Part shown: one piece after another, positions 14,453 to 54,163 of the stretch | How the letters are laid out: every line of letters starts with the position of its first letter | Position numbering within the stretch: the stretch's first letter is position 1 | NCBI GenBank assembly: GCA_963697235.1 | Contig: CAVONJ010000004.1 | Coordinates: 48,781 to 112,780, forward strand | Source: an uncultured Planctomycetota bacterium | GTDB taxonomy: Bacteria; Planctomycetota; Phycisphaerae; Phycisphaerales; SM1A02 | Direction: 5' to 3' | Length of the DNA: 64,000 nt | The notes under the pieces: generated by a model | The model's input: only the letters and a program-made list of their open reading frames with translations | The model's database searches: none | What the model was told of the DNA's origin: nothing | Made by a program: the position numbers and the translations under genes

Positions 14453-14615
14453 AGTGCGTGCCAGATCTGGCAGCGGGCATTGCCCATCGGGGCGGTTCTG
14501 AGCTAGATTCTTGGGCTCGACCGCGTCCAGGGACGGGATGCCCTCACACGGTTCGGACGAACTCGCCGCCCGCGGCGGCGCCAACGGATTTCCGCGGAAG
14601 AAGGGCACAGGAAGC

Positions 14616-15717: not shown

Positions 15718-15811
15718 GCGGCCCTCCGCTCGGGACCGATTGTTGCACTGCGGGAATCCGGTGAAAGACGCCGGCAAGGGAGCTGGCCGCCATCTGGAAT
15801 CGAAGAAGCGG

Positions 15812-16798
15812 ATGATCACCGTCCGACCCCGTGCCAACCACCATGGCCTCGTCCCTTCGCTGCGGCGGATGAGTCGTCCGGTCCTTCTCGCCGCGGTGCT
15901 CGCACTGTGGCTGCCGTCGATGGCGGGTTGCCGATCAGGCCCTTCCGAGGTGGCTGGCGGAGCGGCGGCGGAGCCAGTCGGGGGCGCCCTGGACGTCGGC
16001 GGCACTACTGAGGATGCGGTTGGTCGGCTGACGGGCAGCAACAACGGGCTCGAGCTCATCAAGTGGCTGATCGACGACCAGCCCTCGCGCATCGCCGAGG
16101 CGATGAGTCGGTATACCGAACCGGCGATGGAGGGGTCGCCGACCGACCGGGCGCTGCGGCGAAACGGGCTTCGACTCGTGCGGATTCCGCTGGACAGTCT
16201 GGATCAGCTGCGTGAGGAGCTCGGCGGCACGAAGCTCGAAACCCGCGGCTGGCACGGGCAGATCCTCGAGTGGCGTCCGCTCTATGCCTTACCCCTCGGA
16301 CGAAACCCGGTCACGATCGCGGTCGACGGCCACGTTCGAACGTACCGCGGTGGCGAGCTGGCGCTGCTGGGCCGGAGCTGGACGGTCACGATGGAGGATG
16401 GCCCGTACCTTCAGCTTGAGCTGGTTCCCGCCTACCTGCAAACGCCGCCCCCCCGCGACTACCTGCAGCTGCTGGGGACCGACCGGCCGCAGGCCACCGA
16501 GGGGTTCATCTCCATGGCCGTGGATCTGCAGCTGGATCCGGGCTTCGCATACATCCTCACCTGGGAGGAGCCCGATACGATCTGGACGGCGGCGGGCGGC
16601 AGGAGCAGCAGCAGCGAGGAAGAGGTGGATGCCTCGACTGACTCGAGCCTTCGGCCGGGTGGCATCGGTGTGGGACCGGAGTTCGAAGCGCCGCCCATGC
16701 TGGGGCAGCTTCTGTTTTCGGCGGAGTCGGGTCGTTCCGGTCGCGGTCTGCTGATCTTCGTTCCCAGGGTCCCCGCGGCGCTCTTCCCGCCCGCGTGA
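15812..16798 (+). CDS. Hypothetical lipoprotein
   Basis: MSRPVLLAAVLALWLPSMAGCRSG lipobox; start is ambiguous between 15812 and 15869. No family recognised. Confidence 0.45.
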   Translation: MITVRPRANHHGLVPSLRRMSRPVLLAAVLALWLPSMAGCRSGPSEVAGGAAAEPVGGALDVGGTTEDAVGRLTGSNNGLELIKWLIDDQPSRIAEAMSRYTEPAMEGSPTDRALRRNGLRLVRIPLDSLDQLREELGGTKLETRGWHGQILEWRPLYALPLGRNPVTIAVDGHVRTYRGGELALLGRSWTVTMEDGPYLQLELVPAYLQTPPPRDYLQLLGTDRPQATEGFISMAVDLQLDPGFAYILTWEEPDTIWTAAGGRSSSSEEEVDASTDSSLRPGGIGVGPEFEAPPMLGQLLFSAESGRSGRGLLIFVPRVPAALFPPA

Positions 16799-21397: not shown

Positions 21398-21483
21398 CCT
21401 GCCGCCAACAGGAGCTGCGACCGTGACACCGCTGGAGAAGAAGCCCGCCGCGATCGAACGCGGGCGTCGAGCCGAGCCAGAGC

Positions 21484-22373
21484 GTGCTGACGTTGATGGC
21501 CCAGATCATCGACTACGCCGGGCTCTTTCCGCCGGCCGGACTCGACATGGCGACGATGGTGCGCAACTACGCGGCGTACACCGCAAGGCGACGATGCGTC
21601 GATGCTGGGTCGGCTGATCGTTCCCGTCGCGCGCCTCGACGAGTTCGAGCAGTGCGCCGGCTCGCTGCTTCCCCGCGGCCACGAGGACGAGCCGTGGCAT
21701 CTGAGCGGCTTGACCGCGCCGGCCGGAGACTCGGCGCTGGTGGGGCAGCTCGAGCGGATCGAGACCTTCAATCAGGCGCACGAGGTCCCGGCGTCGGGCC
21801 TGGCCCGGATCGACGTCCTGGAGCTGAAGGCGGATGGAGCAGAGGTCATCGAAGCGGCCCTGGACGAGATTCCCGATGCGCTCTTTCCCGTTCTTCGAGC
21901 TGCCGATCACCGCGGACCCGCGCGGCCTCCTCGCCGCGCTCGTGGGCTCGGACGCGGGGGCGAAGGTGCGCACGGGTGGCGTCGCCGCCGACCTCTATCC
22001 CGATCCGGGGCACCTGGCCCGGTTCATCGCCGCCTGCGCGGCCGCCCGCGTGCCCTTCAAGGCCACGGCGGGGCTGCACCATCCACTGCGCCACTTCTCG
22101 CAGGCCGTGCAGGCTCACGAGTTCGGCTTCCTCAATGTCTTTGTCGCCGCGGCGCTGTCCATGCACGGGGAGTTCGACACGTCGCAGCTCCTGTCCGTGC
22201 TGACCGACGAGCGCATCGAGTCGTTCGGCTTCGACGATGAGGGAATCGCGTGGCGGGGCGAGATGGTGACGGTCGATCAGCTCGAGCGCTCCCGTGAGCT
22301 CCTGGCGATCTCGTTCGGTTCCTGCTCCTTCGACGAACCGCGGGCGGACCTCCGCTCGCTTCATCTGCTCTGA
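21484..22373 (+). CDS. Conserved hypothetical protein (family not recognised), 2 frameshifts; ends 29 bp upstream of fah
   Basis: MTLMAQIIDYAGLFPPAGLDMATMVRNYAAY...LIVPVARLDEFEQ...VPFKATAGLHHPLRHFSQ...FGFLNVFVAAALSMHGEF...WRGEMVTVDQLERSRELLAISFGSCSFDEP. Confidence 0.4.
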
Positions 22374-22401
22374 TCCTCTTTCCTTGCCCGGTACTGAGTT
22401 C

Positions 22402-23726
22402 ATGCTCGATCACACCCACGACCCCTCCCTCCGCAGCTGGATCGAGTCCGCGAACGATCCGGCCGGCGGACTTCCCGATCCAGAACCTGCCCTTCGGCGT
22501 CTTCCGCAGTGACGGCAGCGCCGCGTCGCCGCGGATCGGTGCGGCGATCGGCGAGCGGGTCTTCGACCTGCGGGGCGCGGCGGAGGCGGGTCTGCTGGCC
22601 ATGCTCGCAAGAGGAAGTCCGCGCGGCGCTGCGGGAAGAGACGCTCAACCGCTTCTTGGCGCTCGGTCATCCCGCATGGACCCAGACGCGGCAGGCGATG
22701 TGCGAACTGCTCGCGGCAGCGAACACGACGCTTCAGGCGGATCGCGCCCTGCGCGATCGACTGATCTTGCCCCGGGACGGCATCGAGCTGCTGCTGCCGG
22801 CGCGCATCGGCGACTACACCGACTTCTACGCGTCGGTCCACCACGCGACGAACGTCGGCACGCATGTTCCGCCCCGACAACCCGCTGCTGCCCAACTACA
22901 AGCACCTGCCGGTCGGGTACCACGGCCGGGCGAGCTCGATCGTGGTCAGCGGCACGCCGAGTTCGCCGGCCCATGGGGCAGACTCAGGCCGAGGACGACC
23001 GAGCCGCCGATCTTCGGCCCGAGCCGGCTGCTCGACTACGAACTCGAGATGGGCTTCTTCGTCGGTCCGGGCAACGCGATGGGGCGGCGCATCACGATGG
23101 CCGAGGCGCGCGCGCACATCTTCGGCATGATCATCGTCAACGACTGGTCCGCCCGCGACGTGCAGAAGTGGGAGTACCAGCCGCTCGGCCCGTTCAACGC
23201 GAAGAACTTCGCCACGACGGTCAGCCCCTGGGTCGTGACGCTCGACGCGCTCGCGCCGTACCGGGTCCCCGGACCGCCGCGTGCGGCGGACGATCCGCCG
23301 CTGCTCGACTACCTCCGGCCCGCCGACGACATGGCGCTGCGAGATCACGGTCGAGCTGTATCTGCCAGTCGCAGATGATGAAGGAGCGGGGGCTCGCAGC
23401 CGGTTCGCCTGAGCCGGGGCGCTTCGACGACATGTACTGGACCATCGCCCAGATGCTCGTCCATCACACCTCGACCGGCTGCAACATGCAGCCGGGCGAT
23501 CTGCTGGCCAGCGGGACGATCTCGGGAACGACCCCCGATGCAACGCGGCTGCCTGCTCGAACTGACCTGGCGGGGACAGAACCCGATCGACCTGCCCGAC
23601 GGCACGCAACGCAAGCTCCTGCAGGATGGCGACGAGGTGATCATCAGGGCGTTCTGCGAGAAGCCCGGCGCTGCGCGCATCGGCTTCGGCGAATGCCGCG
23701 GCGTGGTGCTGCCGGTGATCGAGTGA
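22402..23726 (+). CDS. fah: Fumarylacetoacetase (fumarylacetoacetate hydrolase), at least 6 frameshifts
   Basis: [13 protein letters not shown]...[19 protein letters not shown]...[17 protein letters not shown]...[15 protein letters not shown]...[31 protein letters not shown]...[53 protein letters not shown]. Confidence 0.8.
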
Positions 23727-23884
23727 CCAACGGTCGGCTCGAATCGGATATTTCTCCCACCGGGAGAGGTCGGCGAGCAAAGCGAGCCGGGTGAGGGCGG
23801 ACTGCGTCGATCGTTGGTTGCGCAACGGGTGTGTGTGTACGCGCCGCACGCACATGATGGACCAGCGCGCACCAGTTCGCGCTC

Positions 23885-23985
23885 GCAGGCGACACGCGAC
23901 GTTCGCCCTCACCTGGCTGGTCCCCGCGAGCAGGCGCGGGACCAGCGGTCCTCTCCCGGGTGGGAGAGGAGCTTCACTCGAGCCG
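23885..23985. repeat. Structured extragenic repeat, family 1, copy A (two hairpins)
   Basis: gacacgcgacg..gccctcacctgg..gtccccgcg-agcag-gcgcgggac..cctctccc-gggt-gggagagg. About 90% identical over ~85 bp to copy B at 26953..27060. Lies between the convergent ends of fah and the DUF1573 gene. Confidence 0.6.
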
Positions 23986-25131
23986 CGCGATCACGCGCAG
24001 CGGTGTCGTGAAGTTCGACGCGTGCAGGGTGAGCAGGCCGTAGAGCAGGCCCGGCTCTCCGACGCGCGGCGTGATGCGGATGCGGTACTCGAGGAACTGG
24101 CCGTGCGGCACCGCTTCGATCAACTCCGCGTCGAAGGGCTGGTCGGGCGTCTGGCTGATCGCGGCGGTGTTCGCCTGCGGCGAAATGTTGCCTGCGTACT
24201 CGATCTTCGCCGTGACCTCGACCGGGGAGTCGGGTCGCACCACGCCCAAGACAACGCGCTGGTCCTTGGGCACCCAGGGTCGGCCCTTCGGGCGATCGGG
24301 ACGGGTGGCGTCGTGGCGAACGCGCACGTCGATCAGCGGACTGTCGGCGCGGTCGGTCTCGATCACCCAGAACCAGGGGATGTTGCCTTGCTCGTCCAGC
24401 TCGGTGAGATCCCAGCGCAGCGTGTAGCGATTCCGCGGCGAGTCGCGGCCGGGATCGAAGTCGACGAACTCCGGCGCGTGGCCGTTGACCGCAAGCACGC
24501 GGAACGGCTGACCATCGCGGGACTCGGCCACCAGTTCGCCCGTCAGCGTGGTGATCGCGGTGATGTGCGGTGGGGCGATGCGGATCGGCAGACTCACCTC
24601 TGCCTGGAAGAAGTAGGGGACGAAGGTCTGCTCGTACCCCTCGAAGAGAATGCTGACCTTCTCCTTCTTCTCGCCAAGGCCCGACTTCATGGTCATCGTG
24701 GTCGAGAACTCGGTGAACTGGCCGGGCGAGATCACCCGTCCCCCGAGATCTTCCGCCTCGGTGCAGCCGCAGCTGGTCACCGAGCGCAGAATGCGTAGCG
24801 GTGTGCTCCCGGCGTTCCAGATCTTCACCTTCCCCTGACCCGCCGCGCCTGGTTCCACCACGCCAAAGTCAAGGACCGGCGGCTCGAACTCGATCGGCGG
24901 CCAGCCGTCGGGATTTTCCCGGGCGGACGTGCGTCCCGTCGTCGCGATCGGCGCGACGAAGCTCGAGGTGGACTCGTCCGGCACCTCTCGCGCCGAAGTT
25001 GCCACCTGTGCGGTCGACGTGACCGAGGGCTCCTGCCCACATCCAAGGAGCAGCGAGAGGGTAACCAGCGGGACCGCGGATCTCGTCCACGGCCGCTCGG
25101 GACGAGAGCTGAGCAATCGCCTGGCCGCCAT
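23974..25131 (-). CDS. DUF1573-domain lipoprotein
   Basis: Lipobox LVTLSLLLGCGQ. DUF1573-like core: PPVLDFGVVEPGAAGQGKVKIWNAGSTPLRILRSVTSCGCTEAEDLGGRVISPGQFTEFSTTM. The start ATG overlaps the TGA of the upstream DUF192 gene. Confidence 0.65.
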   Translation of the reverse strand: MAARRLLSSRPERPWTRSAVPLVTLSLLLGCGQEPSVTSTAQVATSAREVPDESTSSFVAPIATTGRTSARENPDGWPPIEFEPPVLDFGVVEPGAAGQGKVKIWNAGSTPLRILRSVTSCGCTEAEDLGGRVISPGQFTEFSTTMTMKSGLGEKKEKVSILFEGYEQTFVPYFFQAEVSLPIRIAPPHITAITTLTGELVAESRDGQPFRVLAVNGHAPEFVDFDPGRDSPRNRYTLRWDLTELDEQGNIPWFWVIETDRADSPLIDVRVRHDATRPDRPKGRPWVPKDQRVVLGVVRPDSPVEVTAKIEYAGNISPQANTAAISQTPDQPFDAELIEAVPHGQFLEYRIRITPRVGEPGLLYGLLTLHASNFTTPLRVIARLE

Positions 25132-25715
25132 CACTCGGCCGCCCTCTCAGGCTTGACGGTCTTGGCCAGCGACCGCAGTCGTTCGACATCGAGCCCGGTC
25201 GCGGCGCCGATCTCCAGCTTGAGGTCCCGGATCGAGCCGGCCTTCAGCTCGATCGCGAACTGCGCGGGCTGTCCGCTGAGGTAGCGGCGGAGCCGCGCGT
25301 GGTAGGCCCACTCCGGCTCTTCGGGCCGACGGGGCGGCTCGGTCTTCATCTCATGCAAGGCGACGATCCGTCCGAGCCGATCGATGAAGATCAAGTCCAT
25401 GTCGACCAGGCAGTTGGCCATCCAGAAGCTGAGCACGCTGGCCCGCGGAAAGACGAAGAGCATCCCCGTGGCGTCCTCGATCGTCTCGACGCCCATCAGC
25501 CCAGTTGCTCTCGACCGGGCGTCCGCCGCCACCTTCAGTTCGAAGGTCTTGGTCGCTAGCGTCACCCGCTCGGTGGGGGGAGCGGGGGGCGCTGTGGGCG
25601 CGGTCGGCGGCGGTGCAAGGGGCAGCGCTGCCAGCACGGGCGGGGAGAGAACAAGCGTCCCCAGGATCAACAGGCACCTCATCGTTTGCAAAGTCAGGTG
25701 GTTCATTGCGGCCAT
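25131..25715 (-). CDS. DUF192-domain secreted protein
   Basis: Signal peptide, Pro-rich linker, then the DUF192 core (FELKVAADARSRATGLMGVETIEDATGMLFVFPRASVLSFWMANCLVDMDLIFIDRLGRIVALHEM). Confidence 0.65.
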   Translation of the reverse strand: MAAMNHLTLQTMRCLLILGTLVLSPPVLAALPLAPPPTAPTAPPAPPTERVTLATKTFELKVAADARSRATGLMGVETIEDATGMLFVFPRASVLSFWMANCLVDMDLIFIDRLGRIVALHEMKTEPPRRPEEPEWAYHARLRRYLSGQPAQFAIELKAGSIRDLKLEIGAATGLDVERLRSLAKTVKPERAAE

Positions 25716-25780
25716 TATAGAACCCCGGTCAGTGCAGTCCGATCCGGTTCCTGGTCACCACCGGGAAGCAGCAGGCCAAC

Positions 25781-25817
25781 GAAAAACGGCATGGTCCCGC
25801 GCTGCGAGACCATGCCG
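25781..25817 (-). terminator. Intrinsic terminator downstream of the PEP-CTERM gene
   Basis: 10-bp perfect stem cggcatggtc / gaccatgccg with an 11-nt loop. Followed on the minus strand by TTTTTCGTT. Confidence 0.6.
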
Positions 25818-25848
25818 GTGCGGTGAATCCGTTCGCGTCGAGCGGTGA

Positions 25849-26406
25849 TCAGGCGCGCCGGCGGCGGCGTCTGCTCGTCAGCCCGGCCAGGCCCAGAAAT
25901 GCGACGGCCCCGGGGGCGGGAACGGAATTCCACACGATCAGCACACTCTTGTCGGCGGAGCCCAGGACCGCGGCCGGTGACCAGCTGGCCTGGAACCCAT
26001 CGCCTGTGTCCGCACCCGTCCCCGCGAAGCTGCCGTTCACGAAGACCTGGACGCTCCCGGGCAGGACGTTCTCGCTCAGGTTGTCGACGATGGCGATGCC
26101 CAGCGGGTCGTTGAGGAACGCGGTGTAGGCCATCGTGCCGAAGAGCAATTGCAGGCTGTTGTCGAAGCCGGTGGCGCCGGGCGTGGTGATCGTGCCACCA
26201 CTGACGGCCGTCCACGTGCCGAGCGGGGGAACCGTGTACACCTGCGGCGTTCCGTACAAGACCGGGGCAGGCGGGGTCAGGTCGAGGACCATGCCCGCCG
26301 CGCCATTGTGGTTCACATCGAGCGTAAAGACCGTCCCCGTGAGATCCGCCTTCGCGGCCCCCGTGAGGATCAGCGCCGCGGTGGCGGCCAAAAGCGTTGT
26401 CTTCAT
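25849..26406 (-). CDS. Secreted protein with a C-terminal PEP-CTERM sorting signal (VPAP variant)
   Basis: RBS AGAGGAAAGAG then ATG. Signal peptide MKTTLLAATAALILTGAAKA. C-terminus [24 protein letters not shown] (motif, TM helix, Arg tail). Confidence 0.7.
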   Translation of the reverse strand: MKTTLLAATAALILTGAAKADLTGTVFTLDVNHNGAAGMVLDLTPPAPVLYGTPQVYTVPPLGTWTAVSGGTITTPGATGFDNSLQLLFGTMAYTAFLNDPLGIAIVDNLSENVLPGSVQVFVNGSFAGTGADTGDGFQASWSPAAVLGSADKSVLIVWNSVPAPGAVAFLGLAGLTSRRRRRRA

Positions 26407-26952
26407 GTTCTCTTTCCTCTCTTTGTCCGGTTTTCTCTATCTTGCCCCCGGATCCCGCCTGGACGACGAGGTCTGCGGAGATCGCCTTCGGGTGAAGATC
26501 TCAGCTCCAACCAATAGCCCCGATTCACGCGGCAGCCACCCCGACGTTCAGGAACGATCAACTCCACGCCTGAAGCGCGCCCGCACAGACGGAACAGTCA
26601 CCGAAGTCAGCCCTCGGGATTGGTTATGGAGCCAAGAGAGGAACCTCATTGGTGCCGGCCTCGATCCGATACCTGCACCGCACTCTTTCATCTTCCATTG
26701 GTGTCTCGTTGCTGTTGCGGTGGGAATGTGGAGGAATATGGGACCGCGGCCCGCTCGACGCCCGCGCCGGCTTCTGATCGCGATTGTCGCGTTGCGCGCT
26801 GACGGCGCCCTGGGCGCCGGCGAGCCGAGTGTGCCGAGGAGGGCGAAGCAGGCGGCTTGCCATGCCGTCGATGCAGCCCGACGAAGCCACGCGAAGTGAG
26901 CCAGCTCCGGATGCTATGAATTGAGTGAAGCTGCTCTAGAGCGTGCGCGCAG

Positions 26953-27060
26953 CCGACACGCGACGTCGTCCGCCCTCACCTGGTTCGTCCCCGCGAGCAG
27001 ACGCGGGGACGGGCCGTCCTCTCCCGGGGAGAGGAGTCTCCTTTTCACCTCTCCCGGGAG
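26953..27060. repeat. Structured extragenic repeat, family 1, copy B, with an extra third hairpin
   Basis: gacacgcgacgtcgtccgccctcacctggttcgtccccgcg-agcaga-cgcggggac...cctctccc-gggg-agagg...cctctcccgggaggagagg. Immediately downstream of hmgA. Confidence 0.6.
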
Positions 27061-27096
27061 GAGAGGATGATTGTCGATGCCGGCGCCCTCCGGCGA

Positions 27097-28384
27097 TCAG
27101 CCGCTCGTGTCCACGGCTGCCTTCGCGTGCTGCGGTTTGGCCGAAGCGATCGCTTCGCCGTTCGGTCCGTGGCTGCCGACGAGGTGCGGGAAGTGCTCGC
27201 CCTGCCAGCTCGCGGGGTAGTGGGGGTCGTCCATGCCCAAGGCGGCCGCGTCGGGAAGAGCGGCCGGAAGGTGTCGCACATCACGGCGAGTTCGTCGGTC
27301 CATGTCCTTGCCGAGCGACGCCTCGACGGTGCCGGGGTGCGGGCCGTGCGGAATGCCCTGCGGGTGCAGCGTGATCGAGCCGACCTCGATGCCCTTGCGG
27401 GCCTTGTAGTTGCCCTCGACGTAGTAGAGCACCTCGTCGGAGTCGAGGTTGGAGTGGTTGTACGGCACCGGGATCGCCTCGGGGTGGAAGTCGAGCATCG
27501 CGCGGGCAGAACGAGCAGATCACGAAGTTGTGCCCCTCGAACGTCTGGTGGATCGGCGGCGGCATGTGGAGCTTGCCGACGATCGGGCTGAAGTCGTCGA
27601 TGTTGAAGATGTACGGGTAGTAGCAGCCGTCCCAGCCGACGACGTCGAGCGGGTGGTAGTGGTAGATGTAGCTGTGCACGCTGTCGCGGGCCTTGATGCG
27701 CACCTCGAAGTCGCCCTGTCTCGTCGAAGGTGAGCGGCAGCTCCGGGCACGCGCAGGTCGCGCTCGCAGTACGGCGCAGTGCTCGAGGAACTGCGACGGT
27801 CTGTCTTGGAGACGTAGCGCGGCGGCGGGCACGATGTGCGAGCCGTTGGCGGTCTCGATGACGAGGAAGCGCGGGTTCGGGCTCGCCGGGCTTGGGCTCG
27901 TCGAACTCCATCCGGTAGATCGTGCCCTTGGGGATGACGATGTAGTCCTTGGGCCGGAACGCGCAGCGTGCCGAAGATCGTGTACACGGTGCCCGAGCCG
28001 AAGTGGATGAAGAGGCACTCGTCGCCCTGGCCGTTCTTGTAGTGGTAGTTCATCGGCTCGGCGGGAACGCAGATGCGCCATCTCGCAGTCGGCGTTGCCG
28101 AAGAGGACGACGCGGCCGGTGATCGGGTCGCCCTGCGGCTGGATCGGCATCGTCTTGAGGTGCCGCATGCGCATGACGTCGGTCTCGACGTACTCGGCCT
28201 TCGTCGAGTACAGCGGCTTCCAGCCGGTGACCTGGGTGGGCGGGTGGATGTGGTAGAGCGTCGAGGTCGGGCCGACGAAGCCCTCGGTGCCGAAGACCTC
28301 TTCGGAGTAGAGCGCCCCGTCGGGGCGGCGGAACTGGATGTGCCGCTTGGGGGGAAGCTGGCCGAGCTTGGTGTAGTACGGCAT
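27097..28384 (-). CDS. hmgA: Homogentisate 1,2-dioxygenase, at least 3 frameshifts
   Basis: RBS GGGAGGA then ATG. MPYYTKLGQLPPKRHIQFRRPDGALYSEEVFGTEGF...HYHPLDVVGWDGCYYPYIFNIDDFSPIVGKLHMPPPIHQTFEGHNFVICSFCPR...VLYYVEGNYKARKGIEVGSITLHPQGIPHGPHPG. Confidence 0.85.
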
Positions 28385-28910
28385 GACGAGAATCCTCCCG
28401 ACTTCAACGTGATTCACCGGCGCTGGCGCACCGGCATGGAGTGCGGTCGATTGTAGTGATCCCGGACCCGAAGAGCAGGTCCGCTCGCCCCGGGTGAGAA
28501 AATGGCCTCCCGGCTGCGCAGCGGCAGCGGTCAACGCGCCGCTCGATTGGCCGCCGACAGGCGTTCGCGATGTCGACGGGCGCAGCGCGGGCGACCGGCG
28601 CGGCCGCGGGGTGATGTGCCCTGGTGGCGCCACCCGACGAGCGCCGGCCAAGCCCATTGACCATTGGTTAGCGATGGCTGACACACTGAAGTGCACGAGA
28701 CTCGCCGTCGCTTCCGCGCCTCTGCTGGCAAGAGCGTCAAGGTGGGAGAGATCGACAAGCTCAGCGATCAAAACGAGCGTTCGAAAGTGCGCCGTTCTTC
28801 AAAACCTCGAGAGTTCTCTCGTTGGGGTTCACCAATCGCGCGATACGATGTCAGCCGTCGCGAGCTGGCGACCGGCTCTCGCGTGAGGGAGACGGGGGGG
28901 AAGGAGCAGC

Positions 28911-29312
28911 ATGGTCGCGCATTTAGGAATGACCACGGCGAAGCTGCTTGCACAGCTTCGCCGGATGTTCCCAGAGCTTCAAGTCGAGCCCGGCTATTGG
29001 ACGGCTCAAGTCGACGAGCTGGAGGTCTATGTCGTCGCCGATGAGCACGAAGATCGCTTGCGTATCTTGGTGCCGGTCGCGCGGGCGGATCGATTCGACG
29101 CTGATCTGCTGTGGGTCCTGTTGCTCGCGAACTTTCAGCTCGCTCTCGACGCGCGATACGCCGTACAGGATGGGCTCGTCTGGTGCGTGTTCGTCCACCG
29201 GTTGAGCTGGCTGACCGAGGTGGAGGTCGAGAACGCGCTCTGCAACGTGCTGAGCCTGGCGCGAAACACGGGAAGCAGCTTCAGCAGCAGCGACCTGGTC
29301 CTGGACGGGTGA
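28911..29312 (+). CDS. YbjN-like / type III secretion chaperone-like small cytoplasmic protein
   Basis: Strong RBS GGAAGGAG then ATG. 133 aa, acidic; LEVYVVADEHEDRLRILVPVARADRFDADLLWVLLLANFQLALDARYAVQDGLVWCVFVHRL resembles the YbjN/CesT fold. Tentative. Confidence 0.4.
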   Translation: MVAHLGMTTAKLLAQLRRMFPELQVEPGYWTAQVDELEVYVVADEHEDRLRILVPVARADRFDADLLWVLLLANFQLALDARYAVQDGLVWCVFVHRLSWLTEVEVENALCNVLSLARNTGSSFSSSDLVLDG

Positions 29313-29397
29313 TGAAGCACCCGCCGGCGAACCCGGAGTCTCAACCGAGCATTTGGGCTACCATTCCGCTCTCTCACCACGAAATGAAGGAGCGGCC

Positions 29398-29784
29398 ATG
29401 CCCCGGATCACCATCATCGTCGGCGCCCTGCTCACCGTGCTCGGTCTGGTGGCGTACGTCTTTCTGAGCGAGGCGCCTCGAAGCATCACGGCCATGATCC
29501 CCGCGTTCTTCGGCGTTCCGCTGATCGTCCTCGGCTGGCTCGGTGCCCGTCCCAACCTGCGGAAGCACGTGATGCACGGCGCGGTGCTCCTCGGCGTGCT
29601 GGGCGTGGCCGGCACCGTTCCCGGGCTGCTCAAGCTCCCGACTTTGCTCAGCGGCGGCGAGGTCGCGCGGCCGACGGCGGTCGCCGTCCAGTCGATCATG
29701 GCGGCCATCTGCGTGGTCTTCGTCGTCCTTTGCGTCCGGTCGTTCATCGCCGCCCGTCGGGCGGCGCCGCAAGCTGACTCTTGA
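29398..29784 (+). CDS. Small integral membrane protein (4 predicted TM)
   Basis: RBS AAGGAG then ATG ([22 protein letters not shown]...). 128 aa. Confidence 0.5.
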
Positions 29785-29823
29785 AACAAACGTCATCAAC
29801 CCAGCCGCGGTGCAGCCCGGCGA

Positions 29824-31024
<1,201 letters not shown>

Positions 31025-44817: not shown

Positions 44818-44975
44818 TGCGGTGTCGGGTCAGAAGTTCGTTGAATATCGGCGAGACAAGTGTCGTGCTGGAAGGCGCAGCACGACGGCATACCTGGCGT
44901 CCGATGAGCGGCGACAAAGCCACGCGCAGCCGCAGCAGATGCGAATGACTTCTGATCAGAACGCCTAGCGGCCAG
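44813..44975. mobile_element. MITE-like element, copy 2
   Basis: ggctagtgcggtgtcgggtcagaagttcgttgaatatcggcg...gaatgacttctgatcagaacgcctagcgg. Shares the CTAG-tcagaagttcgttga terminus and internal blocks (atatcggcg, gacggcatac) with copy 1; ~70% identical overall. Sits between the convergent accC and cvpA-like stops. Confidence 0.55.
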
Positions 44976-46548
44976 TCACCATCAGATTGCAGGTTCCCAG
45001 CGTCTTGTCGCCGACCTTGAAGCCGACGAGGGTGGCCCCCTCGGTCACGCGGAAGTAGAGCATCAGCTCCTGGGTTCCCGCCGTGGGCAGAATCGGCAGC
45101 TGGTCGAGCGTGCGAACGTACGTGCCGGGTGCAAGCACGATGTCGGTGTCCGTGCCCTTCTTCAGGATGTATCCCAAGGGTGAATACGTGTTGCCCTGGG
45201 AGTCGACCATTGCCATGACCGCGTCCTCGGCAAGCTGACCGCGCAGGGATGATCCGAAGAGATCGGTGACCTTTCCACGGCTGACGTCCAGCGTGACGAT
45301 GCGCGTACCGGGCGGCTCGTAGATGCCCTTGATCTGAAGGGCTCGCGAGATCAGGCCGGGGCTGCTTCCGAATGTGCCGGTGCCCTCAACGAGGTAATTC
45401 TCCTGCTCCTTCATCGTCCCCGGCAGCGAGTTGGTGCTGATCTTGATGGGCCGGATCGAGTTCGAGATGCGCAGATCGCTCTCCGGAATCGGACGGGCGG
45501 ACAGCTCCACCGTCTCGCTGCCGCCGGTCGAGGTGCTCAGTCCCGCGCCGCTGAGCAGTCCGCGGCGGGAACGGCTGCGGTGCCGGCAGACGATACCGGT
45601 TGTTCTTCACCTGAATGTACTTGGGGACGAAGTTCGCCGGGATCTTGAAGAGGATGGTGGCGGCGGCATTCTCCCGCCCGGGGACCGAGGTCACGTAGTG
45701 GGCGATGTTGTCGAAGCGGTAGAGCGTCCCGTCCTGTGCCCACATGTCGGGGTGAACGACGGGGGCGGCCGCCCATCCGCGGGCGGCGCCGATCAGTCGG
45801 ATCTGCGAGTTCGCGATCGTGAGCTGCTCGCCGAAGTCGAGGGCCGCGCCGTCGAATTGCATGTCGACCGCCGCGCGATCGCCGCCCGCGTTGTAGAGCA
45901 GCCCGGTCACCTTCGCGGCCGAAGGCACCATCACGATCTGCCCCTTGCCCTCCTGGTACGAGTCCCGGACCAGCGACGCCTGCCAGTTGAGCCGGGGAGC
46001 GACACGGCGCATCGGTTCGGGCGACCACATGGAGGTCACGCTCAGCCAGCTGTAGAACTCGGCGGTCCAGTAGGAGACGGGGATCCACATCGGCTGGTTG
46101 CTGAAGCGCACGACGCTCCCGTCGCGTCCGGAGCGGCCGTAGCCGCGATACCCCATGAGTTCGCTCTTGCTCTGGAAGAACCCGCATCCGATGACGATGA
46201 TGCCGACGGTCAGGATCCCCGCGCCGGCGCCCAATGGAAAGCCGAAGGTGAGGTTGGCCCAGTGGGGCAGGTCGACGTTCGCCGGGGCGAGCCGGTCCGT
46301 GATCAGTCGCAGGAGGAAGAGGGTGATCGCGAAGACGCCGAGCAGCGTCACGCCCCAGGCGTAGTTGTCGAACCAGCCGCCGCGGAGCAGGAATCCCGTG
46401 ACCAGCGGCTCCCACACGCCGAAGGCTACGGCGCCGGCGACCACGACCGCGAGCAGGTGAAGCAGCGCGAGAACACCCCCTGATTCGCCCACCAGTAGGC
46501 GATGATCAGGACGAACAGAGTCAGCACGATGTTGAAGATGTAGATCAT
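44965..46548 (-). CDS. CvpA-like (colicin V production family) 4-TM membrane domain fused to a ~380-aa C-terminal extracytoplasmic domain, frameshifted
   Basis: MIYIFNIVLTLFVLIIAYWW...SALLHLLAVVVAGAVAFGVWEPL...LLGVFAITLFLLRLI...GAGILTVGIIVIGCGFF, then a non-membrane domain of unknown family (...IKGIYEPPGTRIVTLDVSRGKVTDLFG...LMVTGR*). Confidence 0.45.
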
Positions 46549-46612
46549 GACGCTCTTCGAATCAGGAATCACATGACGTGGCCGGCTTCCCGGGACGTGC
46601 CCGCGCCACAGG

Positions 46613-48278
46613 TCACGCCGCCTGGGAACTGCCCGACTTCGCCGGCGCCGTGACCCGGATGACTTCTTCGATCGTGGTCTCGCCGTTCAGCACCTTGCTG
46701 AGCGCCGCCTCCTGCAGGTAGATCATCTTGTGGCGGCGGGCGTGGGCCAGGGCGCCCTTGAGATCGCCGGCGCCGAGCATCTTCCGCGCCTCGTCGTCGA
46801 CGAGAAAGACCTCAAAGGCCGCGGTCTGTCCGAGGTAGCCGGTGCCGCCGCAGACCGGGCAGTTCTCGATCTTGTTCTTGACCTGCACCTTGCCGCTCGA
46901 GCGGTAGAGCTGCTTCGCCCGGTCCGAGGGCAGGTTGAGCTTCTTGAGCTGTTCGGGGGAGGGCTGATACGCCTGCCGGCAGTTGGGGCAGAGGGTGCGC
47001 AACAGACGCTGGTTGGTCACGGCCCGCAGCCCCTTGGTCGCCTGCTTGACGTCTCCGACCAGCTTCACCCAGATTCGGATCTCGTCCACGATCGTGTCCG
47101 CCACCAGCGGAACGTAGAGCAGCGGTCCGTACATGCCCGGATCGGTCGCCACCTGGGCCGCTTCCGGCTCCTTGATGACGTCGGTCAGGACGAGGTCCGG
47201 ATCGCGACGGAGAATGGACTGCAGATTGGTCGCGTAATCGATGTCCGGGTTCGTCGGGATCGAACTTGACGTGGTCGATTCCTTCGATCCGCCGCTGCAC
47301 GTTGCGCTCGAGGGTCTTGATGTTGGCCGTGTACGCGTCGTGCCGACTCACGAAGCTGTATGCCGACGTCGTGAGCCCGTGCCCGGAGGGGCGCCGATCA
47401 GGACGATGCCGTGGCGATCGTGCGGCTCGGTGATCGACTTCAGGCTCTCCATCTGCGACGGCAGGAGACCGAGCTCGTCGAAGGATCGGGTGAGCCGCTT
47501 GGCCCGATCGAAGTCGATGCGGATCATCTGACCGGTGGACGAGCCGGCGGTCGTGAGATCGATCTCCACCCGTCCGCTCGGGCCGTTGAGATGGAATCGC
47601 CCTGCCTGCCGCCGCCGGCGATCCTGTACGTCGAGGCCAGCCGATCTCCTTGAGATAGTCGATGAGAGCCACGGCCGACTCGACCGGCACCGGCTCGCGC
47701 TTGTATCGAACACCGTCGATTGATCTGGGAGACGGCGGTTCCGTTGGGACCGATGGCCATCTCGATACGCGAGGCGCGAGCCTCCAGTGCGGGACCGAAG
47801 ACGTCCTCGGCGAGCATGTGCGTGGCGTAGCGGGGATCTTCTTTGGCGGGAATGGCGGCGCCTCGCCAGCCGAGTTCGTGAACTGGATGATCGCATCCCG
47901 CGCCGCCCGCGCCTGCTTGCGAGAGGCCATGCGCTCGCCGAGCGACGCACCGGAGAGCTCGAATCGTTGCGACTCGGGCACCGCCTGGTTGCGGACCCGC
48001 CAGTAGACGAGGATCGGCGCGAGCAGAACGATCATGCCCACCGCGATTCCGACCCCCGGCACGGGAATGAACAGCATCGCCAGGAGCGCGGCCACCCCGG
48101 CTGCCATGTGGATGCCGTTCCACATCCGGTAGTTGAAGTGGAAGTAGCGAGCGTCCTTGTCGAGCTTGGACGAGATGAGCCATGCCCAGGGCACGAACGG
48201 CAGGAACATGATGAGGGCCATCCACCAGCCCACCAGATAGCCGCTGCTGACCTGCGCCAGAATGATCTCACTTCGCAT
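46613..48278 (-). CDS. GspE/PilB-family protein with an N-terminal 3-4 TM region and a degenerate Walker A (predicted pseudo-ATPase), at least 3 frameshifts
   Basis: N-terminus MRSEIILAQVSSGYLVGWWMALIMFLPFVPWAWLI...AAGVAALLAMLFIPVPGVGIAVGMIVLLAPILVYW. Core HGIVLIGAPSGHGLTTSAYSF...ANIKTLERNVQRRIEGIDHVKFDPDEP replaces the canonical GPTGSGKTT Walker A and TIEDPVE. Intact tetracysteine motif CPNCRQAY...CPVCGGTGYLGQTAAFEV. Confidence 0.55.
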
Positions 48279-48298
48279 GAGGGGGCTCGTCGGGAGGT

Positions 48299-49447
48299 CA
48301 GCTGATGCCCTTGAGGCGCATCTTCAGCTCTTCGGGCTTGGGCGTCGCCTCCAAGGCCACCCGGTGGTGAATGTATTCGGCCTCGACCAGCTCCACAAGC
48401 GAGCTGGTGAAGTCGATCATGCCCTCCTCGCGGCTCTTGCGTGATGATGTCGAGCAGTTCGCCTTCGCGGCCCTCGAGGATGTACTTCTGCACGATCGGC
48501 GTGTTGAGCAGGATCTCGATCGCGGGAATGCGGGGGATCTCTTCGTGAAGCGTCGGCAGCAGCTTCTGGTAGACGATCGAGCGGAGGTTGTAGGCCAGCA
48601 GCTTGCGAATCTGTTCGCGGTCTCCCTCGGGGAAGAGGTCGTAGATGCGGCCGAAGGTCTGCCAGGCGGAGGAGGCGTGGATCGTGCCGAAGACGAGGTG
48701 ACCGGTCTCGGCCGCGCGGATGGCAGCCTCGAACGTCTCGTGGTCGCGCATCTCGCCGACCAGCACGACGTCGGGATTCTCGCGGACCAGGGCCCGCAGG
48801 GCCTCGTTGAAGTTGAGGCAGTCGATGCCGACTTCGCGCTGGTTGATGGTGGCCTTGTCGTCCTTGAAGATGTATTCGATCGGATCCTCGATCGTGACGA
48901 TGTGCACCCGCTTCCGCTCGTTGATGTACTGGAGCATCGATGCGATCGACGTGCTCTTGCCCGAACCGGTCACGCCGGCGAAGAGGATCAGGCCCTGGGC
49001 GCTGAGGGAGATTTCGCCGAGCGCCTCGGGCAGGTAGAGATCGTCGAACCGCTTGATGTTCGAGGTGATCAGACGGGCCGCCAGCGAGGGCTTGCCGCGG
49101 GCCATGAAGAGGTTGATGCGGAAGCGGTTGTCGTCGTCGTAGTCGTAGGCGAAGTCGATCTGACCGTGGTGGAGGAAGTGCTCGTACTGGCGGTCGTCGA
49201 GCAGGTCCTTGGCCATCTGGAACATGAGGGGCGGCGTGCAGAGGTCCGTCTGCAGGCTCTTGAGCGCGCCGCGGACGCGGATGCGCGGCGGCAGATCGAC
49301 CTTCACGATCAGGTCGGACGCCTCGTAGCGGATGGTGGCGTCGACGTACTTCTTGAACATCCGCTCGCCCTCGCCGGGTGCGGTTCCCTGATCGTGATGA
49401 ACAGGCGGGGCGACGTCTTCGAAAGCGACTTCCTTGATCGTGCTCAC
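48299..49447 (-). CDS. pilT: Type IV pilus retraction ATPase PilT/PilU family, one frameshift near 48440
   Basis: RBS GAGGAG then GTG. LILFAGVTGSGKSTSIASMLQYINERKRVHIVTIEDPIEY...VLVGEMRDHETFEAAIRAAETGHLVFGTIHASSA...C-terminus ...EEGMIDFTSSLVELVEAEYIHHRVAL. Confidence 0.85.
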
Positions 49448-49802
49448 GGGTGGTCTCCTCTAGCCGCAAGTGATTCCGCAGGTGGGCTCCGCAGGTGGGT
49501 CCGACACGGAGGCTCGGCCCGGCGAGCACCGGCCGAATTCCCTCCTCTACCTTTCGCATCCGCCGCCCTCTTGGTGGCAGAGGATCCGGACATCCAAACC
49601 ACACAGGAATCCCACGGAGCCGCCGAGACGCCTCCCTCCCGCCGGTTCCCGGGGGCCATGTTCCGGAACGCTCAAGGTACCAGACCGTCCGATCGAGCGG
49701 AATCCCCGCCCCCGAAACCCGGGACCGTCTCGAGTTTCTCGTCAGCGGATTGCAGTCGGCTGCGCACTGGGCAATCGGCCGACCGCGGTGGTTCACCCGC
49801 GC

Positions 49803-52800
49803 CTATGTCGACACCGCCTCCGCTCCTGACTCGGACGGCCCCTTCGCTGGCGCCGCTGCCGGCACGCCGCGCAGCTTCTCGCTGACTCCCTGGATCACCC
49901 GGTAGAGCACGGGCACGCTCACCACACTGACGACGGTAGCAACGAGCATGCCCCCGAAGACCGTCGTGCCGATCGCCTGGCGGCTCTCGGCGCCGGCGCC
50001 GCTGGCCACCAGCAGCGGGATCACGCCGAGGATGAACGAGAAGGCGGTCATCAGCACCGCCCGGAAGCGGATCCGCGACGCCTCGAGCGCCGCGTCGACG
50101 ACGCTGAGGCCCTCCTCTCGCTTCACCTTCGCGAACTCGACGATCAGGATCGAGGTCTTGGCCGAGAGGCCGATCAGCAGCACGACGCCGATCTGGGTGT
50201 AGACGTTGTTGTCGATCTGACGGATCATCAACGCCGCCACCGCGCCGAGCAGTGCCGTCGGCACGGCAAGGCAGACCGACACGGGAATCGTCCAGCTCTC
50301 GTACTGGGCGGCGAGCACCAGATAGACCAGGATGATCGAGAAGAGGAAGATCACCGCCGCCTGACCGGAGGCCTTGTTCTCCTGGTAGGAGAGATCCGTC
50401 CACTCGTATCCCATCGAGGGAGGCAGCTTCTGGTCGGCCATCTGCGACAGAATCTGCATCGCCTGGCCCGAGGTGTAGCCGGGAGCGGGCTGTCCGCTGA
50501 TCTTGGCGGAGGGATAGATGTTGTGGTGGAAGACCGTCTGCGGACCGAGCACCTCCTTCACGGTCATCAGCGACCCGAGCGGAATCATGCCGCCCGCCGG
50601 TGCGCGGACCTCCAGCTGCAGGATGTCGTCCGGCTTCAATCGGTACTCGCTCTCGGCCTGCGCCCGCACCTGGTAGATCCGACCGAACCGCGTGAAGTCG
50701 TTGACGTACACCGAGCCCAGGTACGCCTGGAGCGTGCTGAAGACATCCTGCAGGGGGATATCCAGCGAGCGAACCTGCTCGCGATCGATCTCGACGAAGA
50801 GTTGGGGGATGTTCGCACGGAAACTCGTAAACATGCGGGAAAGCCCGCTCTGCGCGTTGCCGTCCTCGACGAACTCGTTCGCCACTGCCTCGAGTTGCCG
50901 CAAGCCGGTGCCGCCGCGATCCTGAAGCTGGAGCGCGAATCCACCGGCAGCGCCGAGGCCAGGCAGTGAAGGGGTCGGGAAGGCGATCACCACCGCCTCC
51001 TGGATCTGAGCGAGTTCGGCGTTGAACTTTTCGAGCAGGGCGTTCTGGTGCAGACCGGGCGCGGACCGCTCGCTCCAGGGAATGAACGTGCAGACGACCG
51101 TGCCAGCGTTGGACGCAAACGGCGCCGTCGATGAGCGAGTAGCCTCCGATCCCGATGACGTTCTCCGCGCCGTCGGTTCCCATGAGGATTGCGGTGACCC
51201 GATCGACGACTGCATTGGTGCGTTCCAGCGAGGCGCCGTCCGGAAGCTGGATGTTGACCATGCGCCCAACCCTCGTCCTCCTGGGGCACGAATCCGGTGG
51301 GCAGCTTGGCGAACCCGAAGACCGCGAGGCCGATGAGGCCGATGAAGACGATCAGCCCGATCACCGCCACCCGCAGGGCGCCGCGGACGACGCTGAGATA
51401 GCCGACGGTGGTGCGCTCCAGGAGCGTGTTGAACCAGCGGAAGAGGATGAAGGGCTTCTTCTGCGTGGGCCGCAGCAGCACGCCGCACAGCGCCGGGCTC
51501 ATGGTGAGCGCGTTGATCGAGCTGAAGATGGTGGCGATCGAGATCGTGACCGCGAACTGTCGGAACAGCTGCCCGGTGATGCCGCCCAGGAAGACGGTTG
51601 GCACGAAGACCGCGAGCAGGACCAGCGTGGTCGCGATGACCGGTCCGGTCACCTCCTCCATCGCCTTCAGCGCCGCCTCGCTTGGCGTCGGTCTCACCCT
51701 CGTCGAGATGGCGGGTCACGTTCTCGACCACGACGATCGCGTCGTCGACCACGATGCCGATCACGAGCACCAGACCGAAGAGCGTCAGCTGGTTGATCGA
51801 GTAGCCCAGTGCGGCCATGACCGCGAAGGTCCCGATCAGCGACACCGGAATCGTGACGGCCGGAATGAGCGTGGCCCGGAAGTTCTGCAGGAAGAGGTAG
51901 ACGGTGAGCACCACGAGGACCAGCGTGATGAAGAGGGTCACCACCACTTCCTCGACCGACGCCCGGATGACTTTGGTGGAGTCGTAGGCGATCGTGTACT
52001 CCAGCCCTTCGGGAAAGACGCGCGACAGCTCGTCGATCTTCGCTCGCACGCCTTCGGCCACCTCGATGGCGTTGGCGCCGGGCAACTGGTAGATGCCCAT
52101 GGCGCACGTCGCCTTGCCGTTGAACGTCGCGCTGACGTCGTAGGACTTCGAGCCCAGCTCCACGCGGGCCACGTCCTTGACCCGAACAAGCTCCCCCTCG
52201 TCCCCGACCCGCACCACGATATTCTCGAACTCCTCGACGTTGCTCAGCCGCCCCTGTGTGTTGACCGTGAACTGAAACGCCTGCCCCTTCGGCACCGGAG
52301 GCTGGCCGATCTGACCGGCCGCCACCTCCACGTTCTGATCGCGCACGGCGGCGACCACGTCGTTCGTGGTGAGCTCGAGCGCCTTGAGCTTGTTCGGATC
52401 GAGCCACACCCGCATCGAGTAGTCGCCGGTGCCGAAGACCTGCACGTCGCCGACTCCCCGGATTCGGCTCAGCTCGTCGCGGATGAAGAGCGTCGCGTAG
52501 TTGGACAGGAAGAGATCGCTGTAGCGTGTCGTCGGGGGAGCTCAGGCAGACGAAGAGCGTCGTCTCGCTGGACTGCTTCTTCACCGTGACGCCTTGTCGC
52601 GCAACCTCCTCGGGAAGCTTGGGCTGTGCCGTGGAGACGCGGTTCTGAACGAGCACGTTGGACATGTCCAGATCGGCGCCGACGTCGAAGGTGACGGTGA
52701 GGTTCATCGTCCCGTCGGCGGAGCTGACGCTGGTCATGTAGGCCATGTCCTCGACGCCGTTGATCTCCTGCTCGATCGGCGTCGCCACGGTCGATGCCAC

Positions 52801-52972
52801 CGTCTCCGCGTTCGGCGCCGGGATAGACGGCCGCCACCTTGATCGTGGGCGGCGCGATCTCCGGATAGCGGGCGATGGGCAGCGCGAACAGAGCAATGCC
52901 GCCGACCAGGACGATCACGATCGAGATCACCGACGCGAAGATCGGACGCTCGATGAAGATGCGACTGAACAC
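49803..52972 (-). CDS. RND efflux transporter permease (AcrB/CzcA family), more than 8 frameshifts
   Basis: N-terminus MFSRIFIERPIFASVISIVIVLVGGIALFALPIARYPEIAPPTIKVAAVYPGA. Middle VEIAEGVRAKIDELSRVFPEGLEYTIAYDSTKVIRASVEEV. C-terminal 6-TM bundle. ~1056 aa. Confidence 0.8.
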
Positions 52973-52986
52973 GTTTCGCCTCTCGG

Positions 52987-54163
52987 TCAGCCTGTTCCGC
53001 CGCCGTCCCCGGGACCACTTCCGGAACCATCGCCGGCATTCTTCGACTGGGCGCTCGCGGCCGCGGTCGCCTCGACGGCGTTCACCGTCAGGCCCGGCCG
53101 CGCCCGCTGGAGGCCGTTGACGATGACCCGCTCGGACGGATCCAGACCGCCCAGAATCACCCGGTCACGATCGTCGAGACTGCCGAGCTCCACGTCGCGG
53201 CGCTGCACGGTGCCGCTCCCGTCGACGACGAGCAGGAACGGCCCGACGATGTCTCGCTGCACGGCGATCTCCGGCACCAGCATCGCCACACTCGAGCTCC
53301 GGGGAACGCGGATACGCGCGAACAGACCGGGGAAGAGCTGACCCTCCGGATTTGGGAACGTCGCCCGAACCTGCAACGTGCCGGTGGTGGGATCCACCCG
53401 GTTGTCACCGAAGTCGACCGATCCCGGCGCGGCGTAGGCGCTCCCGTCGGCGAGAATCAGCAGACAGGTATGAGTCAGCGTCCTGTTCCCGCTCCGAACG
53501 AGGGTGCTCTCGGAGGATCTCCACGAGGAACCGCTCGTTGATGTTGAAGTACGCGTAGATCGGATCATCGTCCACGACGTTCGTGAGCAGCGTGGAGTCT
53601 CCAGCTCCCACGAGATTGCCGACGGTCACGAGCTCGCGGGAGACGTTCCCCGTGATGGGGGCAACCATCTTCGTGTAGCTCAGGTCGATTCGGGCGTTCT
53701 CGAGCTCGGCCATCGCGCCGCTGACGGCCGCCGCGGCGACGTCGCGGTTCGCTTCCTTCTCCGCCAGCTCGATCTCCGTCACCGCCTGCTTTTCAAAGGC
53801 CCGCGTCGCCCGCTCCAGCGTCGACCTCCGCCAGCTTCAGGTCGGCTCTGCGGCTCTCCAGCCGGGCCTCCGCGAGGGCGACCGGCCGCCTGGAACGGCG
53901 CCTCGTCGATCGTGAAGAGGGTCACCCCCTTCTCGACGCGGCGACCGGGCTCGAACTCGACGCTCTCGAGGAACCCCTTGACCCGGGCCCTGATCTCCAC
54001 CGTCTCGAAGGCGTCGAGGCGACCGGTGAACTCGTCGTACACGGTCACCTCCCGCTCCATCGGCGCGGCGACGGTGACCGTCGGCGGCGGCGGGGGGGCG
54101 AACTCGTTGCTGGCGGAGCAGCCGGTCAGCAATCGCGACCAGCCCGGCGAATCTGATTCTCAT
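52987..54163 (-). CDS. RND efflux membrane fusion (periplasmic adaptor) lipoprotein, frameshifted
   Basis: Lipobox LLTGC. ...VTVYDEFTGRLDAFETVEIRARVKGFLESVEF...KMVAPITGNVSR...VDGSGTVQRRDVELGS... Confidence 0.7.

Follow-up and report, generated by a model that had tools for sequence, protein, structure and literature searches.

A 64,000-nt stretch of contig CAVONJ010000004.1 (assembly GCA_963697235.1), from an uncultured Planctomycetota bacterium of the order Phycisphaerales and referred to here as the window, carries three minus-strand genes in the same orientation at positions 44965-49447. They are, in order of reading, pilT, a gene for a GspE-like protein, and a gene for a CvpA-like protein; together we call them the triad. 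An original prediction, made from the nucleotide sequence, described the three products as a PilT/PilU retraction ATPase, a GspE/PilB-family protein with an N-terminal multi-transmembrane region, and a CvpA-like protein with four transmembrane (TM) helices and an additional domain of no family, encoded with gaps of 20 bp and 64 bp between the genes. The coordinates and layout hold, as does the gap of 64 bp; the first gap measures 19 bp rather than 20. We find that the triad recurs across related genomes in one order and that its middle gene encodes a predicted pseudo-ATPase fixed to the membrane.

None of the three genes is an intact open reading frame (ORF) in the window sequence. One frameshift in pilT, at least five in the GspE-like gene, and two in the CvpA-like gene were located by three-frame translation, a codon-position frame model, and tblastn with intact homologues. 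Frame switches extend throughout the window, which the original prediction had missed: the frame model counts about 99 abutting switches over the 64 kb, or about one per 650 bp, and these also hit accC and the RND pump gene, with some at short homopolymer runs. That all three triad genes are frameshifted as given, and that one ORF of the window, truncated by a frameshift, has a public protein record of 100% identity (P0122), could be taken to indicate a decaying pseudogene cluster with real frameshifts, a reading that we regard as very improbable. From end to end of each gene, the translated triad pieces share 57-87% identity with intact homologues (tblastn). Because of this full-length alignment, and because the switches are window-wide, we read the frameshifts as indel errors in the deposited assembly and not as decay. 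Pseudogenization specific to the triad is ruled out by the same spread of frameshifts across the whole window. Throughout this analysis, the triad proteins were reconstructed across frames and the genes treated as functional.

A retraction-type motor and a membrane-anchored pseudo-ATPase

The pilT product is predicted to be a hexameric ATPase of the PilT/PilU family, in agreement with the first description of the locus. It scores 384.7 bits against TIGR01420 (cutoff 319.1), covering profile positions 3-343 of 343, and its best PDB match is Aquifex PilT (2EWV, 290 bits). The window PilT has each catalytic motif intact (Walker A, GSGKST; Asp box, EDPIEY; Walker B, GEMRD; His box, GHLVFGTIHAS), and all four are retained in 71 of 71 triad PilTs. 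At the position of the AIRNLIRE motif, triad PilTs feature P-x-V-[QT]-K-Y-I-L-E, which reads PIVQKYILEG in the window and departs from the canonical motif. AIRNLIRE has been modelled at the interface between PilT and PilC, and PilU, which is without the motif, reaches the machine only via PilT (bioRxiv 10.1101/2025.10.30.685630). The variant in the triad would fit a PilT with an altered docking partner.

The second protein has the fold that was originally assigned to it. It matches PF00437 (T2SSE) at 119 bits and falls far under the equivalog cutoffs for GspE (TIGR02533, 171.7 versus 630.25) and PilB (TIGR02538, 133.5 versus 675.65). The structure model (predicted local distance difference test score, pLDDT, of 84.6) comprises three long N-terminal helices, a linker, an N2 domain, and a C-terminal domain. 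The cytoplasmic part aligns with PilF, PilB, and EpsE (Foldseek E of ~1e-31, TM-score of ~0.8 on the target, 26-30% identity) and more weakly with PilT (TM-score of ~0.68, 17% identity).

In the model, residues 1-106 are three TM helices. The alignment with EpsE of V. cholerae (4KSS) begins only at residue 149, in the N2 domain, and no T2SSE_N or MshEN domain was matched in the GspE-like protein; the three-TM anchor therefore stands in for the soluble N1 domain, the part of GspE that binds GspL. Loop charges predict a topology with the N-terminus outside and the C-terminus inside, since the mean number of lysines and arginines over 78 sequences is 0.01 at the N-terminus, 3.5 in loop A, 0 in loop B, and 4.3 after the third TM helix. 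The lysine- and arginine-rich anchor loop, which this topology places inside, carries a conserved KLDKDARYF motif.

The working ATPase implied by the original prediction does not stand, for the catalytic residues of the GspE-like protein are lost. Among 121 sequences of its family, the Walker A lysine is a leucine in 117, the Walker B glutamate is kept in only 41, and the first histidine of the His box is a proline in every one; the Asp box, EDPIE in its functional form, has degenerated to ER(E)Ix. All four cysteines of the Zn motif are invariant, both in the 121 sequences and in distant clades, and the distant clades have lost the catalytic residues in the same pattern. We therefore predict a family-wide, conserved pseudo-ATPase, a status that had gone unnoticed. 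Identity to full-length homologues is 56-70% across 94-100% of the query, and proteins this similar to the window protein with the same residues lost would imply that a non-catalytic role is under selection. PilT is then predicted to be the only catalytically competent ATPase among the three triad proteins.

The CvpA-like protein matches Colicin_V (PF02674) at 20.9 bits, below the gathering cutoff of 29.3, over profile positions 2-124 of 144. Among 89 relatives, 70 match Colicin_V at E<=1e-3 (best 1.9e-9), and no other Pfam family was matched in any of them. Of the profiles that the original prediction had suggested searching (T2SSE, T2SSE_N, and CvpA), the first was thus matched, the second was not, and the third remained below its cutoff. 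An AlphaFold2 model of the CvpA-like protein (pLDDT 94.1; predicted TM-score 0.89) features a bundle of four TM helices that leaves minimal loops on the cytoplasmic side, an alpha/beta part next to the membrane, and two beta-sandwich domains. The C-terminal part of the window protein, about 400 amino acids, has no Pfam family, and its structure has neither a close match nor the fold of a protease or other recognizable family; the four helices and the extra domain of no family are as first described. The short-loop charges, together with the analogy to MarP discussed below, would place this domain outside and probably in the periplasm. CvpA of E. coli has been genetically linked to envelope stress, and its function has been described as largely unknown (bioRxiv 10.1101/2020.09.25.314492).

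Conservation across Phycisphaerales

A species-level scan, with one genome per species and the alignment of CvpA-like proteins as query, recovered 163 genomes. Neighborhoods were counted in 80 of the loci found and in two others. All 80 derive from metagenome-assembled genomes; most carry the label Phycisphaerales, Phycisphaerae, or Planctomycetota, and a smaller number go by other planctomycete names. Wherever a source label gives a class or order, it is Phycisphaerae or Phycisphaerales. In all 72 loci with enough DNA, the CvpA-like gene has the GspE-like gene immediately upstream, and pilT immediately precedes the GspE-like gene in 65 of 67, a count that scores seven loci with abutting or overlapping pilT and GspE-like genes as having PilT. 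Where the gap between pilT and the GspE-like gene is positive, its median is 36 bp; the median gap between the GspE-like and CvpA-like genes is about 60 bp across loci. No second T2SSE ATPase or CvpA gene was found close to the triad in the 82 loci, and families of platform proteins, pilins or pseudopilins, prepilin peptidases, and secretins are absent among the conserved neighbors of about 80 related loci.

In the main clade, the triad usually sits between guaB, which is divergent, and accC, which is convergent, and part of the gene order there could therefore be inherited rather than functional. Distant members keep the same order, with a T2SSE protein of ~385 amino acids, a T2SSE protein of ~545-575 amino acids, and a CvpA-like protein, between flanks that are unrelated. 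Two of these triads (L084 and L091) are flanked by ribosomal protein genes; two (L086 and L087) have a hisF-like gene upstream and murD-polA downstream; one (L088) is flanked by DUF429 and MFS genes; and one (L090) by murD. The murD gene follows the CvpA-like gene directly and on the same strand, at 12223-13572 in L086 and 4579-5928 in L087, with a 4-bp overlap, and at 5617-7125 in L090, after a gap of 57 bp. At another locus (L085, 1927-2340), a gene for a 137-amino-acid protein with a 23S_rRNA_IVP domain, a four-helix bundle, lies between the GspE-like and CvpA-like genes. Finally, L092 (4405-18199) harbors the GspE-like/CvpA-like pair without pilT, followed by a DUF1559-type prepilin gene. 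On its other strand, about 3.6-10 kb away, are pilM, a likely pilN, pilO, a pilin-like gene, and three minor-pilin-like genes.

Overall, because the gene order is kept while the flanks change completely in distant clades, there is strong evidence that the triad is a conserved operon and functional unit of Phycisphaerales. The test of conservation proposed with the original prediction has thus come out in its favor. A profile search of 1.84 billion cluster representatives (50% identity) returned 593 representatives at E<=1e-30. A second group of the family, of ~590-620 amino acids, shares mainly residues 1-220, and the few source names for this group are all Phycisphaeraceae or Phycisphaerales.

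Several individual loci have features of their own. In L016, a pilT remnant occupies positions 3647-3838 with guaB just beyond it; the GspE-like gene is confirmed intact and the CvpA-like gene is full length. L091 encodes a stand-alone MshEN protein of 165 amino acids (the T2SSE N-terminal domain of the type that binds cyclic di-GMP) about 3 kb upstream of the triad, at 3324-3821; this is the domain absent from the GspE-like protein. L001 (CP070772) carries a gene for an HDOD-GGDEF-PilZ protein between the CvpA-like gene and accC (13766-15847), a possible link to cyclic di-GMP in this locus only.

Features and surroundings in the window

Coordinates of the triad and its sequence features are listed in Table 1. 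The triad promoter is likely to lie in the non-coding stretch ahead of pilT, and a GGAG ribosome-binding site is located 8 nt ahead of the GTG start codon. No sigma-70 consensus was matched in this upstream stretch, and a scan for promoters and terminators at the locus returned nothing beyond the shuffled expectation. An explanation of the locus by an RNA element or repeat was dropped, as the region from 44 to 50.5 kb has no Rfam match and repeats at chance level only.

Table 1. Positions of the triad genes, their intervals, and selected sequence features in the window.
Feature	Position	Strand	Description
Non-coding stretch between the RND pump gene and pilT	49448..49859	(-)	~410 bp; from the frame model
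pilT	48298..49447	(-)	GTG 49447 to TGA 48298; 383 amino acids; one frameshift near 48437 (homologue alignment)
Spacer, pilT stop to GspE-like start	48279..48297	(-)	19 bp
GspE-like gene	46613..48278	(-)	ATG 48278 to TGA 46613; ~558 amino acids
Membrane anchor of the GspE-like protein	47999..48239 (approximate)	(-)	Three hydrophobic helices; 25-52, 57-77, and 81-106 in the model (P0060 numbering)
Frameshifts in the GspE-like gene, at least five	near 47830, 47720, 47636, 47388, 47260	(-)	Translation, frame model, and homologue alignment
Degenerate Walker A, GAPxGHGLTT	47364..47407	(-)	Leucine for the catalytic lysine; a frameshift lies inside it in the window
Degenerate Walker B and lost His box	47096..47203	(-)	Walker B DPDLVLTDVIKE (versus DPDvvmvGEIRD); His box YGPLLYVPLVAD (versus tGHLvmsTLHtn)
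Tetracysteine Zn motif (CPNC ... CPVC)	46850..46990	(-)	Kept; typical of GspE/PilB-type ATPases
Spacer, GspE-like stop to CvpA-like start	46549..46612	(-)	64 bp
CvpA-like gene	44965..46548	(-)	ATG 46548 to TAG 44965; ~527 amino acids; two frameshifts, near 46468 and 45563

On one side the triad is flanked by pepP-accB-accC, and on the other by an RND pump with its adaptor and then guaB. A Pfam scan, run on the frame-corrected translation of most predicted coding sequence, detected no PilC/GspF, pilin, prepilin peptidase, PilM/N/O/P, or secretin in the 64-kb window, and no prepilin-type N-terminus emerged from a six-frame motif scan. The reported lack of pilin, platform, and secretin genes nearby therefore extends to the whole window. 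PADLOC models of defense systems gave weak P-loop matches for PilT and none for the GspE-like and CvpA-like proteins, and an anti-phage reading of the locus was dropped for want of a match.

The RND efflux pump (ACR_tran, 1110 bits) and its HlyD-type adaptor occupy 49860-54129 on the minus strand, between guaB and pilT. This region looks like a lineage-specific insertion, as most related loci have guaB as the direct divergent neighbor of pilT. Elsewhere in the window, a coding stretch of ~1,430 amino acids extends over three frames at 10085-14374 on the plus strand, has no Pfam match at E<=1e-5, and sits upstream of genes for a LOG-type (Lysine_decarbox) protein and a CDP-alcohol phosphatidyltransferase. 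The region 21457-30860 encodes a set for tyrosine degradation comprised of fumarylacetoacetase, homogentisate 1,2-dioxygenase, and a likely 4-hydroxyphenylpyruvate dioxygenase, the last recognized by eye only.

A proposed docking complex for a PilT-family motor

In the current view, secretion-superfamily ATPases such as PilB, PilT, and GspE work as soluble hexamers docked on a PilC/GspF platform. We tentatively propose, with a rough probability of 0.45, that the triad forms a membrane complex dedicated to docking a PilT-family motor and transmitting its action, probably in the service of type IV pilus machinery whose genes lie elsewhere. The GspE-like protein is most likely PilT's own membrane receptor: catalytically dead, it would serve the PilT hexamer as a docking adaptor or ring fixed in the membrane. 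Its three TM helices would pack against the four of the CvpA-like protein, and their contact is placed within the membrane because the CvpA-like bundle exposes almost nothing to the cytoplasm. ATP-driven movements of PilT could then be relayed via the TM bundle to the probably periplasmic beta-sandwich domains; alternatively, signals from the envelope might be relayed back to PilT. Rather than being a secretion system in its own right, such a module would most probably give the retraction-type motor a further or alternative place to dock, in support of a type IV pilus or type IV filament machine whose genes lie elsewhere in the genome.

The proposal draws on the shared strand and short gaps of the genes, on the conservation of the triad and of its pseudo-ATPase, on the likeness of the GspE-like core to extension ATPases with an anchor in place of N1, and on the AIRNLIRE variant of the triad PilTs. 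In favor of the link to pili, PilT passes TIGR01420, the model for type 4a pilus ATPases, well-studied bacteria have pilT apart from their other pil genes, and the GspE-like/CvpA-like pair of L092 lies near a pilus cluster. Because that pair is about 3.6 kb from the pilM/pilO/pilin-like cluster, type IV pilus parts exist in at least one member of the triad-carrying clade. The original prediction had pointed instead to a minimal ATP-driven membrane machine. Its notion of a unit is borne out by the conservation of the triad. Its partner for PilT is not an ATPase, which changes the mechanistic picture, and the missing pilin, platform, and secretin neighbors are weak evidence for a minimal machine because pilT is commonly unlinked from other pil genes, as in the pilTU locus of P. 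aeruginosa.

Other observations weigh against a docking complex that serves a pilus. L012 and L016 keep the GspE-like/CvpA-like pair with only a C-terminal pilT remnant of 42-66 amino acids, and L009, which has too little upstream DNA and was left out of the 65/67 count, contains the same remnant; with nothing else of pilT in these three loci, the pair can persist without an adjacent motor. Pilus genes are nearby in only one of about ten distinct gene contexts and could be there by chance. The topology of the CvpA-like protein is weakly supported, in that its short-loop charges favor the outside location while the stretch after the fourth TM helix is also rich in lysine and arginine. Moreover, CvpA-type proteins are not known from any type IV filament system.

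The principal rival holds that the triad is an autonomous inner-membrane mechanotransducer that, without pilin, PilC, or secretin, remodels or monitors the envelope, for example its peptidoglycan or cell division; hydrolysis by PilT, relayed through the dead GspE-like anchor, would move the periplasmic domains of the CvpA-like protein. We consider this less likely than the docking complex, though the most probable of the alternatives. The triad is closed and strongly conserved in at least six gene contexts, and L092 alone has another type IV filament gene within 10 kb; the variant AIRNLIRE suggests that PilC is not used in the usual way; and the partner is of the CvpA type, with a C-terminal domain that is without close structural match, while CvpA of E. 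coli has been genetically linked to envelope stress (bioRxiv 10.1101/2020.09.25.314492). The overlap or close spacing of the CvpA-like gene with murD points in the same direction, but this adjacency is confined to one subclade, where polA comes next. Pilus genes do lie near the pair in L092, and the absence of such neighbors elsewhere says little for a gene that is typically unlinked from the other pil genes. The characterized ATPases of the TIGR01420 type, furthermore, are all known to act on a pilin filament via a platform protein. Formulated most specifically, the triad would be a new kind of self-contained machine in which the PilT hexamer has been re-targeted from PilC to a membrane-integral ring of dead GspE paralogues and, through the bundle of three plus four TM helices, drives or gates the two periplasmic beta-sandwich domains, acting on the envelope and not on a pilin filament; we give this a similar, rather low probability. 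Peptidoglycan growth or division is one candidate target for such a machine because adjacency suggests co-transcription with murD in one subclade.

A regulatory decoy that transmits no force seems improbable to us. Here the dead GspE-like protein would sequester PilT or compete with PilB at the membrane and so set the balance of extension and retraction, with the CvpA-like protein as an envelope sensor. The retained PilB/GspE fold and Zn motif could still occupy binding sites for PilB or PilT, and the persistence of the pair where the adjacent pilT has been lost (the remnant loci) or is absent (L092) would allow it to act on motors from other loci. In about 97% of loci, however, the pair is tied in a tight operon to one specialized PilT, which suggests a stoichiometric partner over a general regulator. 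It is more doubtful still that pilT is an ordinary retraction gene with no functional coupling to two membrane-protein genes co-inherited beside it in one order. The genes guaB and accBC are also frequent neighbors in the main clade, and shared ancestry alone preserves some gene order; yet in distant clades the triad persists amid entirely different flanks, its genes lie on one strand with short gaps between them, and the PilTs of the triad form a subfamily with a signature motif of their own.

A widespread, membrane-integral dead paralogue, always accompanied by a CvpA-type protein and nearly always by a specialized PilT, suggests a coupling of motor to envelope that differs from docking on a platform. 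Numbering at least 593 clusters (50% identity) and present in at least 163 species-level genomes, the family appears confined to Phycisphaerales, an order known mostly from metagenomes. With the triad, a CvpA-family protein would for the first time have a partner and a setting that can be tested. A module that does no more than adjust ordinary pilus retraction would add modestly to pilus biology; a triad that works without a filament would be a new use of the PilT motor family.

Comparison with known systems

No description of a pilT, dead GspE-like, and CvpA-like arrangement was found in a full-text search of the literature, nor was any report found there of a CvpA protein partnering a PilT or GspE ATPase; the original remark that the arrangement matches no described system agrees with this. 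The nearest parallel in gene order is the PilT-PilU pair of type IVa pili (for example, in P. aeruginosa and V. cholerae), in which pilT is likewise followed by a second gene of the ATPase family in the same operon, away from other pil genes, and PilT is considered the accessory partner's sole route to the machine. PilU, an active ATPase, belongs to the PilT branch. The second gene of the triad, in contrast, comes from the PilB/GspE branch, and its product is catalytically dead, is anchored by three TM helices, and is always encoded with a CvpA-like gene after it.

Similarly, the GspE-GspL assembly of the type II secretion system and the PilB-PilM/PilN assembly of type IV pili hold a GspE/PilB-type core, with its N2 domain, C-terminal domain, and four-cysteine Zn site, at the inner membrane. 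In these systems, tethering is achieved by a soluble N1 domain that binds a separate bitopic protein, as in the GspE-GspL complex (4PHT). The GspE-like protein of the triad has no N1 domain, its TM helices are fused directly, and it cannot power assembly, as the catalytic residues are gone.

An active secretion-superfamily ATPase also operates beside a RecA-type partner that does not hydrolyze ATP productively in the FlaI-FlaH pair of the archaellum, and in this respect the two arrangements are alike. FlaH, however, is a soluble, KaiC-like protein and no GspE paralogue, and the archaellum includes a FlaJ platform and a filament. For the third protein, the closest likeness is to CvpA and MarP (Rv3671c), which have a Colicin_V-type bundle of four TM helices resembling the one modelled for the CvpA-like protein, followed in MarP by an extracytoplasmic domain; the C-terminal domains of the CvpA-like protein are two beta-sandwiches and have no protease or other recognizable family. 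In summary, none of the systems compared here unites PilT and a CvpA-type protein with a dead GspE paralogue fused to TM helices, and we regard the triad as a module of the type IV filament ATPase family.

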